A DNA stretch of 17,595 nucleotides from a virus (Duplodnaviria; Heunggongvirae; Uroviricota; Caudoviricetes), in IMG/VR virus record IMGVR_UViG_3300036944_001243. One strand, written 5' to 3'. The notes beneath the pieces were generated by a model. That model made no database searches, was not told the DNA's origin, and worked only from the letters and a program-made list of their open reading frames with translations. Positions 3 through 1,797 of this stretch are shown here, one piece after another. The position numbers and the translations under genes are program-made. Each line of letters opens with the position of its first letter. The stretch's first letter is position 1.

Positions 3-869
3 CAAGAAGGTATACAATTTACAAAAGAACAAGAAGAGTTTATTGTTCAACAGGCGAATACTGGACTGTCATCTCTAGCAATTGCCGAAATGCTTTTCCC
101 GAAAAAAGAGGTGAAACCTCTTTCTTTGGAGCAGAGAGCAGTTCACAGCATCATCAAGGAGATAAATCCCGACTATTCTCCATCACAAGATAGCGATGTT
201 GGACTCAGCAGTTATGTAGCGCCGAAATCGACGAGCCGAATCATCAAAAAGATCAACGACGCAACTGGTAATGAGTTGTTGGAAGAGAAGATTAATAGAC
301 AACATAAAATATGCGTAGATCGTCTCGGCATCAATTTGAATAACTCACGATTTCTGAAGATCGTCAATAATTATACATCAAAAGAAGATAGAGAATTATT
401 TGAACAAGAATTTATTCGCTTGACATGGGATAAACCCGATTTAACCGCTGATGAAATTAACCTTTACATGAACGTGTGTAAAGAAATCGTTAATCTAGAA
501 GTTGTCAGCAAGCATTTGAACAAGTTGAATGACATGTTTGATGTCGCCAATGATCAAGAAGAAATGAGCGTTAGGCTGGCAGAAATTATCAAAGCAAAAA
601 GCTCTGAATATCATCAGTGCGAAACCAGAATCGAAAATCTTACTAAAAAACTACAAGGTGATCGTTCTACAAGAATGCAGAGTAAGCAAAAAGAAAATGC
701 CTCTCTACTATCTTTGGTTCAATTCTTCCAAGATGAAGAAGAGCGTGCGAATATGGTAAAAATCGCAGAAATGCAAAAGGCCCTAGTCAAAGAAGAGGCT
801 CATAGACTAGAAGGAATGGCTGAATGGAAGGCGCGTATTTTAGGAATTTCACAAGACGATGTCATTTAA
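3..869 (+). CDS. Probable terminase small subunit / packaging DNA-binding protein (5'-partial)
   Basis: The frame is open from base 3 (QEGIQFTKEQEEFIVQQANTGLSSLAIAEMLFP...), so the ATG at 90 is probably internal. The N-terminal part looks like a helix-turn-helix and the C-terminal half is coiled-coil-like. It is the first gene of the coupled block leading to TerL. Function is inferred mainly from position. Confidence 0.55.
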   Translation, partial: QEGIQFTKEQEEFIVQQANTGLSSLAIAEMLFPKKEVKPLSLEQRAVHSIIKEINPDYSPSQDSDVGLSSYVAPKSTSRIIKKINDATGNELLEEKINRQHKICVDRLGINLNNSRFLKIVNNYTSKEDRELFEQEFIRLTWDKPDLTADEINLYMNVCKEIVNLEVVSKHLNKLNDMFDVANDQEEMSVRLAEIIKAKSSEYHQCETRIENLTKKLQGDRSTRMQSKQKENASLLSLVQFFQDEEERANMVKIAEMQKALVKEEAHRLEGMAEWKARILGISQDDVI

Positions 870-1797
870 ATGTAAAGAATGCGATCAAGAGTTTGAATCG
901 CTTAAAAGCTTGCATGCTCATATCAAAAAACATAATTTGATACTGGGTGATTATTATGTAAAGCATTTTCAAAGACGCAATAAGTTAAACGGTAATCTTT
1001 TGCAGTTTAAAAACTACGAAGATTACTTTGATAAAGATTTTACAAACAGAAGTCAAATGATCGAGTGGTGCAAGACCGCCGATAAAGAAGAAGTAAAAGA
1101 ATATATCCTTTGTTGCTTAAAAAAGAGAATAGAAAAAAAGAAATTAAAATATGCGCCAAACACTATCGAATTATTCACTGCTGATTTACCACCAATGCCT
1201 TTATACAAACAGTTGTTTGGTAGCTATTCTAAAGCGTGTGAACTTTGCGGTTCTGAGCCTATGTTCAAAGCTTCTTTGCCCAAAGAGTTTGATAATGATT
1301 ATAGGGATTTCAAGATTTATATAGACACTAGAGAACAACAACCACTTTCATTCAATAATTCTAGTTCTTTAAAATTAGATGTTGGTGATTATGCTGTCAA
1401 TGGAGATGAGTATGATTATACATACGTCGATAGAAAGTCATTTGCTGATTTCTGTTCAACAATGACAGTTGGATTCGATAGATTCGGAAGAGAGTTGGAA
1501 AGATGCAGAAGCTTAGGATGCTATTTGTTTATTGTTATCGAGTGCGATCTATATAAAATGGCCAAGCTTAACGCCTTCTCACCTAAGAGATACAATCTTA
1601 ATTATGTGTTTCACAATATGAAAGAGTTACAGCATGAGTATAGAGATTGCTGCCAATTTGTATTTAGCGGAAACAGAAGCAGTAGCATTCTTTTGATTCC
1701 AAAATTATTAATCTGTGGACAAAAGCTTTGGAATACTGATGTGCAATATTTCTTAGACGAAGGAGTTATGAATTATTACGAAAGGAGTAAAAAATGA
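859..1797 (+). CDS. C2H2 zinc finger + homing-endonuclease-associated repeat-like segment + ERCC4 (XPF/Mus81-family) nuclease
   Basis: CKECDQEFESLKSLHAHIKKH (871-933) fits C-x2-C-x3-F-x5-L-x2-H-x3-H. PPMPLYKQLFGSYSKACELCG resembles the P..Y...FGSW..A...G repeat. IYIDTREQ...LDVGDY...YVDRKSFADF...FGRELER...LFIVIE matches ERCC4 core motifs. It overlaps the upstream gene by 11 nt and TerL by ATGA. Confidence 0.8.
   Translation: MSFKCKECDQEFESLKSLHAHIKKHNLILGDYYVKHFQRRNKLNGNLLQFKNYEDYFDKDFTNRSQMIEWCKTADKEEVKEYILCCLKKRIEKKKLKYAPNTIELFTADLPPMPLYKQLFGSYSKACELCGSEPMFKASLPKEFDNDYRDFKIYIDTREQQPLSFNNSSSLKLDVGDYAVNGDEYDYTYVDRKSFADFCSTMTVGFDRFGRELERCRSLGCYLFIVIECDLYKMAKLNAFSPKRYNLNYVFHNMKELQHEYRDCCQFVFSGNRSSSILLIPKLLICGQKLWNTDVQYFLDEGVMNYYERSKK

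Follow-up and report, generated by a model that had tools for sequence, protein, structure and literature searches.

A candidate packaging-associated ERCC4-type nuclease encoded between a putative small terminase gene and the large terminase gene in a large uncultured phage clade

Phage resolving enzymes clear branched molecules that would hinder genome packaging (PMC3864405), and HNH nucleases are common beside cos sites and terminase genes, where they stimulate cutting by the large terminase subunit, TerL (PMC3592412, PMC9410871). When the literature was searched for ERCC4 or XPF in connection with terminase, packaging or phage, no description of a module of the type presented here was found, nor did the searched literature contain biochemical work on any ERCC4 nuclease of viral origin.

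We analysed a window of 17,595 nucleotides (the whole stretch of DNA examined, from IMG/VR record IMGVR_UViG_3300036944_001243, class Caudoviricetes), which begins with the 3' part of a TerS-like gene followed by the gene of a protein designated P0001 and by TerL (Table 1). P0001 consists of a C2H2 finger, a helical region with a terminal segment resembling a homing-endonuclease-type repeat, and then an ERCC4/XPF nuclease domain. The claim of the initial annotation that this reading frame overlaps both neighbors holds: its start shares 11 nt with the upstream ORF (stop codon at 867-869) and its end shares 4 nt (ATGA) with TerL, whose start ATG lies at 1794 and whose Shine-Dalgarno sequence AAGGAG (1782-1787) falls inside the end of the P0001 gene. 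The P0001 gene is predicted to be transcribed together with the TerS-like gene and TerL, with translational coupling being probable.

Table 1. Features at the start of the window (positions of the whole stretch; residues refer to P0001)
Feature	Position	Strand	Basis
3' part of upstream gene (putative small terminase)	3..869	+	full-length ORF in relative L014, alignment, model
312-aa zinc-finger/helical/ERCC4 nuclease protein P0001	859..1797	+	ORF list and translation
C2H2 zinc finger, residues 3-25 (C5, C8, H21, H25)	865..933	+	Pfam zf-C2H2_6/_4, alignment, model
Helical region, residues 29-97	943..1149	+	alignment
HNH_repeat-like (homing-endonuclease-associated) three-helix module, residues 98-131	1150..1251	+	PF18780 in relatives
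ERCC4/XPF-type nuclease domain, residues 150-300	1306..1758	+	Pfam ERCC4, Hef 1j22 profile match, Foldseek, VIA-align
Large terminase (TerL), 619 aa	1794..3653	+	Terminase_6N 2e-8, phrog_2 1e-24

Several independent comparisons assigned the C-terminal part of P0001, whose core begins at about nt 1306-1315, to the ERCC4 family. The Pfam model PF02732 matched P0001 with 25.7 bits (cut-off 24) and matched 33 of 33 relatives (best E 4.2e-10), phrog_3490 matched P0001 at 5e-12, and a profile of the nuclease domain retrieved the Hef nuclease 1j22 (E 1.4e-5) with the DxRE, GDY and ERKxxxD motifs and the downstream R/E positions aligned. The AlphaFold2 (AF2) model (pLDDT 91, pTM 0.85) had Aeropyrum pernix XPF (2bgw/2bhn; E 6e-6, probability 1.0) and Hef as its top Foldseek matches, and VIA-align gave Z scores of 11.1 (Hef) and 10.9 (XPF) for a restriction-endonuclease-like alpha/beta fold; restriction enzymes were present among the weaker fold matches. 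The catalytic set comprises D156-T-R-E159, G176-D177-Y178, D191-R192-K193 and D197, in which D156, E159, D177, Y178, R192, K193 and D197 are unchanged in all of 26 sequences, the most distant at 26% identity, while the first position of the ERK element is either D or E (D191 in P0001); the motif as a whole was detected in 122 of 126 full-length representatives. Thus, the ERCC4/XPF core that had been read from the sequence, for which profile searches and structure prediction had been proposed as checks, was supported by both, with an intact catalytic motif. Considering this motif and fold, P0001 is predicted to act as a metal-dependent endonuclease within the ERCC4 (XPF/Hef/Mus81) superfamily. 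An (HhH)2 domain is absent: no HhH family match was obtained for P0001 or the 33 relatives, the protein ends about 12 residues past the nuclease domain, and fold matches span just residues 139-290. There was also no HNH family match in P0001, the catalytic domain being ERCC4.

The N-terminal part is made up of different modules, which may take the place of (HhH)2 as an array of C2H2 finger, helical motif and HNH_repeat-type helix-turn-helix. The finger proposed in the initial annotation was recovered with its Cys-x2-Cys-x12-His-x3-His ligands and a beta-beta-alpha unit (strands 3-4 and 11-12, helix 15-25 in the AF2 model). Pfam C2H2 scores of P0001 itself were 20-23 bits against cut-offs of 25-27 (zf-C2H2_6 with 22.7 bits, slightly below its cut-off of 25), and 33/33 relatives matched C2H2 models with all four ligands (C5, C8, H21 and H25) unchanged; across full-length representatives, the pattern CxxC-x12-Hx3-4H was kept in 106 of 126. 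Within the helical region, residues 29-62 form a highly conserved motif (LGDYYVKHFxRxNKLxGxLLxFKNYxDYF) with a mean pairwise identity of 0.63, versus 0.32 at residues 63-97. This region gave neither a family match nor an atlas lead, and an ESM Atlas feature search with residues 26-135 returned zero matches. As for the homing-type repeat that had been suggested at 1150-1251, it is supported at the level of the family, in which 18 of 33 relatives matched PF18780 at E <= 0.1 (best 1.1e-5), and the sequence of P0001 itself had no match at E <= 1; residues 73-131 weakly resemble TetR-type HTH domains (Z about 5). Modules of these kinds are typically found in proteins that bind DNA sequence-specifically, and they would fit a site-specific and a structure-specific cutter alike.

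With regard to the neighboring genes, the family matches given in Table 1 confirm the downstream gene as TerL, and a TerL profile searched against PDB sequences matched P74-26 TerL in the ATPase domain alone (E 0.034). In the C-terminal half of TerL, D350, D411 and D583 are unchanged across 12 relatives, and it is these invariant acidic residues that suggest a nuclease domain. The upstream protein is 350 aa long when complete, as in relative L014, and its model shows a pair of three-helix modules at the N-terminus together with a long coiled coil. It had no match in Pfam, PHROGs, NCBIfam, PDB sequences or Foldseek-PDB, and ESM Atlas features offered nothing usable, with low-score YonG leads only; the gene is therefore named a putative small terminase from its position and its HTH-like and coiled-coil architecture.

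To what extent the nuclease gene belongs to this locus can be judged from its relatives. Full-length homologs of P0001 amounted to 711 in 90% clusters, with 265 representatives at E<1e-30, and the clade accounts for about a thousand contigs in IMG/VR (pattern matches 343 and more than 600), the phages being about 130-170 kb in size. With regard to a host, full-length members occurred only on metagenome-assembled genome (MAG) contigs whose bins belong to unrelated phyla; these are in all likelihood phage contigs placed in the wrong bin, and they point to no particular host. We found no cultured member of the clade and no close relative among GenBank phages: the best match of P0001 by tblastn was Halorubrum virus HRTV-27 (30% identity, confined to the nuclease domain), and for TerL the top matches had identities of just 24-27%.

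A P0001 homolog was present upstream of TerL in all 150 TerL-seeded environmental loci that had upstream DNA (78/78 and 72/72; the two subclades represented have TerLs of just 39% identity), and the gene order TerS-like/ERCC4/TerL was kept in 12 distant full-length members (30-53% identity). The TerS-like gene lies upstream of the ERCC4 gene throughout. Some relatives have one gene between these two, and some have unrelated genes spanning 1.4-3.7 kb between the nuclease gene and TerL; no locus was seen in which the TerS-like gene runs straight into TerL. The accessory genes neighboring the terminase locus vary among relatives while the position of the ERCC4 gene stays. Distance matrices of P0001 and TerL were correlated (r = 0.89, Mantel p = 0.001), dN/dS was 0.031 for P0001 (versus its closest relative) and 0.033 for TerL, and the P0001 gene is under purifying selection as strong as that on TerL. 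The initial annotation had proposed a survey of synteny, in which constant presence would speak for a core role and patchy presence for a mobile element. Because the gene was constantly found between its TerS-like and TerL neighbors, these comparisons of sequence and gene order support P0001 as a core gene that is inherited vertically within the terminase operon of a large uncultured phage clade.

The same data bear on whether P0001 might be a homing endonuclease sited in the terminase operon, be it a selfish gene that is still mobile or one that was domesticated recently. The HNH_repeat module seen in 18/33 relatives is typical of homing endonucleases, and the terminase region of this clade attracts mobile elements, such as inteins carrying LAGLIDADG in TerL. 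However, the sporadic distribution expected of a selfish gene was contradicted by the occurrence of the P0001 gene at the same place in 150/150 loci, and no locus had the TerS-like gene joined directly to TerL. Since the gene is not sporadic, co-diverges with TerL and is as strongly purified (dN/dS 0.03), an active homing endonuclease is rejected, and we consider this explanation as a whole highly improbable. Nor is ERCC4 known as a catalytic family of homing endonucleases. The DNA-binding module of a homing endonuclease may, nevertheless, have been domesticated in the ancient past as part of P0001.

Standing constantly between the TerS-like gene and TerL, with overlapping frames, the P0001 gene would also fit a second explanation, in which its product is a terminase cofactor for genome-end cutting. 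P0001 would then be the third member of the maturation complex, assisting the TerL nuclease or taking over part of its work when concatemers are cut at a specific site, as the HNH protein gp74 does for the HK97 terminase, and the zinc finger and HTH modules would read the cut site. The sequence-reading types of its N-terminal modules, the precedent of the terminase-adjacent HNH nucleases and the place of the ERCC4 fold within the restriction-endonuclease-like superfamily, in which weaker matches were obtained, all agree with such a cofactor. On the other hand, TerL keeps D350, D411 and D583 at the places that the triad occupies in terminase nucleases, and therefore its nuclease would need no replacement. 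The intervening genes in some relatives, on both the TerL side and the TerS-like side, imply that strict coupling is not required, and the ERCC4 enzymes known to date are structure-specific, none being site-specific. Considering these points, a cofactor for end cutting appears unlikely.

Alternatively, P0001 might serve another DNA transaction and merely be sited in the late operon, such as host DNA degradation, XPF-like flap removal in the repair of damaged phage DNA, or cleavage of a competing element or defence intermediate. Cellular ERCC4 nucleases act in repair, and the genome of a complete relative (G001, 133,831 bp) carries the UV-damage endonuclease UvdE, which shows investment in repair. 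Moreover, stand-alone viral ERCC4 genes are not located beside terminase genes, e.g., HRTV-27 gp075, whose surroundings are small early-type genes. If the function had nothing to do with packaging, however, it would be unexpected that the position of P0001 is kept down to 39% TerL identity despite the turnover of accessory genes and that selection on it equals that on TerL, and we regard this possibility, too, as improbable.

We favor, with a probability of about 0.5, the reading that P0001 is a packaging-time debranching or resolving nuclease. In this mechanism, the enzyme would cut branched DNA during packaging, in a replicating genome that is rich in recombination, its substrates possibly being forks, flaps, D-loops, and nicked or intact four-way junctions, and removal of these branches would allow the motor to translocate unbranched duplex; we infer the substrate class, a dimeric mode of action and the timing. 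A Pfam scan of G001 identified RecA-like, RuvB-like, SSB and PDDEXK_1 proteins, and no RuvC, RusA, Endonuclease_7, Hjc, RecU, endo I or VRR_NUC was among the matches listed for 148 of the 180 ORFs (E <= 1e-3, ORFs of 75-420 aa, one list holding the best 25 of 31 families). The debranching idea thus gains indirect support, because the genome has RecA-like, RuvB-like and SSB proteins and no recognisable classical resolvase among the matches listed for the ORFs scanned. Most genes of this phage match no family, so divergent resolvases could be missed; a family search of relative genomes was negative for Endonuclease_7, RuvC, RusA and Phage_endo_I, and the same search missed the known ERCC4 gene in 2 of 3 records. 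Four points count against a debranching role: the PDDEXK_1 nuclease of G001 could also process junctions, the DNA-binding modules of P0001 would suit a site-specific cutter equally well, known XPF/Hef enzymes require the (HhH)2 domain that P0001 lacks, and the debranching genes of T4 and T7 sit outside the terminase operon, unlike the P0001 gene.

A stronger version, close to the third component of the packaging machine that had been suggested from the sequence, would make P0001 an obligatory subunit tethered to the terminase via the 29-62 motif or the C-terminal tail, clearing junctions or cutting ends while travelling with the motor or being loaded by it. Co-folding of TerL and P0001 gave a score of 0.01 against a mark of 0.32, a value obtained without controls that is silent either way on binding, and we consider an obligatory subunit decidedly doubtful. 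If it were true, P0001 would be an XPF-type counterpart of HK97 gp74 and T4 gp49 combined.

Whichever role applies, P0001 represents a nuclease of the XPF type whose DNA-binding front end is new and whose gene is fixed in the terminase operon of its clade, and the TerS-like/ERCC4/TerL trio provides a practical metagenome marker for these phages. For large phages that depend on recombination and have no endo VII, RuvC or RusA types, P0001 is a concrete and testable candidate for the enzyme that clears branches before packaging. If it resolves junctions, the ERCC4 family would be extended to the resolvases of bacterial viruses, and a compact nuclease without (HhH)2 would become available for structural study; if it works with terminase instead, it would be a second, independent accessory nuclease recruited to the packaging machine.

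Compared with known systems, P0001 shares its fold with archaeal XPF/Hef (2bgw/2bhn, 1j22-1j25), eukaryotic XPF and Mus81 (rmsd about 3 A over 123-130 residues), and the catalytic motif of Hef aligns with it position by position. In contrast to XPF/Hef, P0001 is phage-encoded within a terminase operon, has neither an (HhH)2 nor a helicase domain, carries an unrelated N-terminal array of 150 residues (C2H2 finger, helical motif, HNH_repeat-like segment), and is only 18-24% identical in sequence. It also showed no orthology to Hef or archaeal Xpf in the NCBIfam models NF010337 (17.7 bits, cut-off 610) and NF040956 (14.7 bits, cut-off 300). The genes of T4 endonuclease VII, T7 endonuclease I and phage bIL67 RuvC are not known to be embedded between terS and terL. 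The role we propose for P0001 would be the same as that of T4 endonuclease VII (gp49), T7 endonuclease I (gp3) and bIL67 RuvC (PMC3864405), whereas their folds and families are unrelated to it. HK97 gp74 and other terminase-adjacent HNH endonucleases resemble P0001 in that a small nuclease gene with a zinc-binding element is conserved beside the terminase genes (PMC3592412, PMC9410871); however, the gp74 fold is beta-beta-alpha-Me HNH whereas that of P0001 is ERCC4/restriction-like, and gp74-type genes lie beside the cos site whereas the P0001 gene is located between the two terminase genes. Stand-alone viral ERCC4 proteins (phrog_3490, HRTV-27 gp075, and ASFV EP364R-like proteins of large DNA viruses) have the same nuclease domain, with fold matches in BFVD, but are mostly nuclease-only proteins of 145-230 aa or have other extensions and lack terminase linkage; the full architecture of P0001 was absent from BFVD. 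Actinobacterial fusions of an Lsr2 DNA-binding domain with ERCC4 (an ESM Atlas cluster) are similar to P0001 in that a separate DNA-binding domain replaces (HhH)2, although they are bacterial, use a different DNA-binding domain, and align to P0001 in the nuclease domain alone (TM 0.40 by query).

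The predicted nuclease P0001 is encoded in a piece of an uncultured tailed-phage genome, where a portal-sized gene, head genes and a tape-measure gene follow on its 3' side and a PHROG search returned no family match for most phage genes. The initial annotation had the P0001 gene overlapping both of its neighbours, and this was borne out: its ATG lies 11 nt ahead of the stop of the upstream ORF, and its TGA has bases in common with the ATG of the large terminase gene (TerL), which is preceded by AAGGAG. TerL was identified by Terminase_6N (Pfam, 2e-8) and phrog_2 (PHROGs, 1e-24); residues D350, D411 and D583, which fall in the C-terminal half, are invariant, and their motifs (FDPS, GDYNGG and KDSYSAL) presumably form the acidic-triad site of the terminase nuclease, a domain that a sequence search with TerL did not confirm. 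The upstream gene is conserved throughout the clade and encodes, where complete (in the relative L014), a protein of 350 aa that combines two three-helix modules at the N terminus with a helical middle and a long coiled coil. Its position agrees with its earlier naming as TerS, and a putative small terminase is a reasonable assignment; because the protein had no match among families, PDB sequences or solved folds, the label is positional rather than demonstrated. Directly before this gene, all long loci encode a protein with a weak Sigma70_r2 match (stronger in two relatives, L094 and L095), with genes for a small zinc-ribbon protein and PhoH on its 5' side; the Sigma70_r2-like protein could serve the phage as a late sigma factor that controls the packaging operon.

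Coordinates of features in the window and in loci of relatives (L handles)
Feature	Location	Strand	Length	Remarks
P0001 gene	859-1797	+	312 aa	ORF
Upstream ORF (TerS-like)	3-869	+		Open at window edge
Conserved motif, P0001 residues 29-62	943-1044
AAGGAG ahead of TerL ATG	1782-1787
TerL ATG	1794
Sigma70_r2-like protein	L014:3326-4027		233 aa
RuvB-like AAA+ protein of G001	L099:205-1107		301 aa	RuvB_N 34 bits, RuvB_C 31 bits
RecA-like protein of G001	L106:32-1171		380 aa
Nuclease with C-terminal extension	L003:2600-3613
Inserts around ERCC4 gene	L011:4205-4999, L011:5908-8439
Intein-bearing TerL	L038:4555-7626

Within P0001, the Pfam score for ERCC4 was 25.7 bits, over the cut-off of 24, three C2H2 models each fell slightly short of their own cut-offs, and the PHROGs match was 'ERCC4-type nuclease' (5e-12). 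In an alignment of 33 relatives (53-84% identity), all of which match ERCC4 and C2H2 models, the zinc ligands C5, C8, H21 and H25 are invariant, as are D156-T-R-E159, G176-D177-Y178, D191-R192-K193 and D197. A profile of the nuclease half, built on 26 sequences with identity down to 26%, gave E 1.4e-5 for the nuclease domain of Hef (1j22) and 0.013 for the XPF of A. pernix, the alignment covering the DxRE, GDY and ERKxxxD motifs; the first 'ERK' position is D in P0001, and E (87) versus D (38) among relatives. The C-terminal half of the AF2 model (pLDDT 91, pTM 0.85) superposes on Hef (Z 11.1) and XPF (Z 10.9, 24% identity), and also on FANCM, human XPF and Mus81. Both the C2H2 finger and the ERCC4/XPF-type core of the initial annotation are thus upheld, whereas its homing-endonuclease-associated repeat fared unevenly, PF18780 (HNH_repeat) being matched over that segment by 18 relatives (best 1.1e-5) and not by the other 15. 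Since P0001, unlike XPF, Mus81 and Hef, lacks the usual (HhH)2 domain and falls far short of threshold with the NCBIfam equivalog models for Hef and Xpf, membership is assigned at the superfamily level only. Residues 73-131 of the model weakly resemble HTH domains (Z about 5), the front end has no counterpart in the solved or BFVD structures searched, and ESM Atlas clusters sharing the full-length shape are all viral. Sequence and model together place P0001 in the ERCC4 nuclease superfamily, with what appears to be a novel front end.

Residues 29-62 carry a motif (LGDYYVKHFxRxNKLxGxLLxFKNYxDYF) whose conservation equals that of the catalytic domain and which is still discernible as DYY..FPR.D in 30%-identity relatives; it matches no known family and could be a site of contact with protein or DNA. 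In many relatives (L003, L042, L054 and others) a basic C-terminal extension lengthens the nuclease to 336-338 aa, its coding sequence overlapping the TerL start by ~95 nt in a different frame. Stand-alone ERCC4 proteins of 150-215 aa, resembling the nuclease half of P0001 only (28-43% identity), occur in many bacterial MAGs (L115-L147; Desulfobacterota, Myxococcota, Verrucomicrobiota, Terriglobia and others).

Searches with P0001 yielded 711 matches in 90% clusters and 1239 representatives at E<1e-3 (265 of them at E<1e-30), with full-length matches to ~30% identity. The gene order TerS-like, ERCC4, TerL was found in all P0001-seeded loci and, as a guard against ascertainment bias, TerL was also used as seed. 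A homolog lay directly upstream of TerL in all 78 loci with upstream DNA among the 80 from the first seed (it usually shares 11-14 nt with the gene before it and 4-95 nt with TerL) and in 72/72 loci with 400 nt or more of upstream DNA from a second seed (TerL 39% identical to the window's); 12 distant members (30-53% identity; metagenome or MAG contigs) keep the order, so the placement first noticed in the window holds across relatives. The wider conserved order is PhoH, a small gene, the sigma-70-region-2-like gene, TerS-like, ERCC4, TerL and a portal-sized gene. Some lineages have accessory insertions on either side of the ERCC4 gene, whose position is unchanged in all: in the 48%-identity subclade of L011, a sulfotransferase sits between TerS-like and ERCC4, and a PDDEXK_15 nuclease, two methyltransferases and an NAD-dependent epimerase between ERCC4 and TerL, a gap that holds an N6/N4 DNA methylase in L094. 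In several relatives (L038-L041, L044, L047, L093 and L110) a LAGLIDADG intein splits TerL after ~residue 78 (or ~113), giving ORFs of 1023-1079 aa; the window's TerL is uninterrupted. ERCC4 and TerL distance matrices are correlated (r = 0.89, Mantel p = 0.001), the nuclease evolving at ~1.4x the rate of TerL, and dN/dS against the closest relative is 0.031 for the nuclease and 0.033 for TerL. Because of this co-divergence and low dN/dS, the ERCC4 gene appears, at the sequence level, to be a vertically inherited core gene, and it is highly improbable that P0001 is a homing endonuclease.

The complete relative genome G001 (133,831 bp, 95-bp end overlap; TerL 83% identical to the window's) was scanned with Pfam over 148 of 180 ORFs (75-420 aa, including four spanning fetch boundaries; one list comprised the best 25 of 31 families), most genes being too divergent for Pfam. 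The scan detected, besides a RecA-like recombinase, an ATPase resembling RuvB (RuvB_N and RuvB_C each above cut-off), together with SSB, primase, PDDEXK_1, UvdE, RNase T-type exonuclease and Metallophos proteins and the ERCC4 gene. Among the matches listed for these ORFs, RuvA, RuvC, RusA, Endonuclease_7, Hjc, RecU, endo I and VRR_NUC were absent, and the ERCC4 protein represented the sole recognisable structure-specific nuclease family. In two of the three relative records searched by PF02732 family (G001 and G002), the ERCC4 gene was overlooked although it is known to be there, and negatives of this search are therefore unreliable for these divergent phages.

Phage resolving enzymes serve to clear away branches that would otherwise obstruct packaging (PMC3864405). 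Because the RecA- and RuvB-like proteins imply branched concatemers, and given the ERCC4 protein's standing as sole candidate of its kind and its packaging-operon location, P0001 is best explained as a packaging-time debranching or resolving nuclease (probability about 0.5). The phage's own strand-exchange and branch-migration proteins would produce branched concatemers, whose branches the ERCC4 protein, expressed from inside the packaging operon, would cut at packaging time, its front-end modules holding duplex arms and standing in for (HhH)2. The main rival, a helper of terminal cutting like the terminase cofactor HK97 gp74 (PMC3592412, PMC9410871), would suit the sequence-reader-type modules and the position within the terminase operon, but appears unlikely, as the TerL triad looks intact and the coupling is loose in some of the lineages; service in an unrelated DNA transaction is similarly doubtful.

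The literature searched contains no description of a terminase operon that encodes an ERCC4 nuclease. P0001 thus appears to be a known kind of nuclease in a new architecture and a new position, robustly conserved and with a predicted role, whereas its GenBank phage relatives consist of the nuclease domain only and are located elsewhere in the genome.
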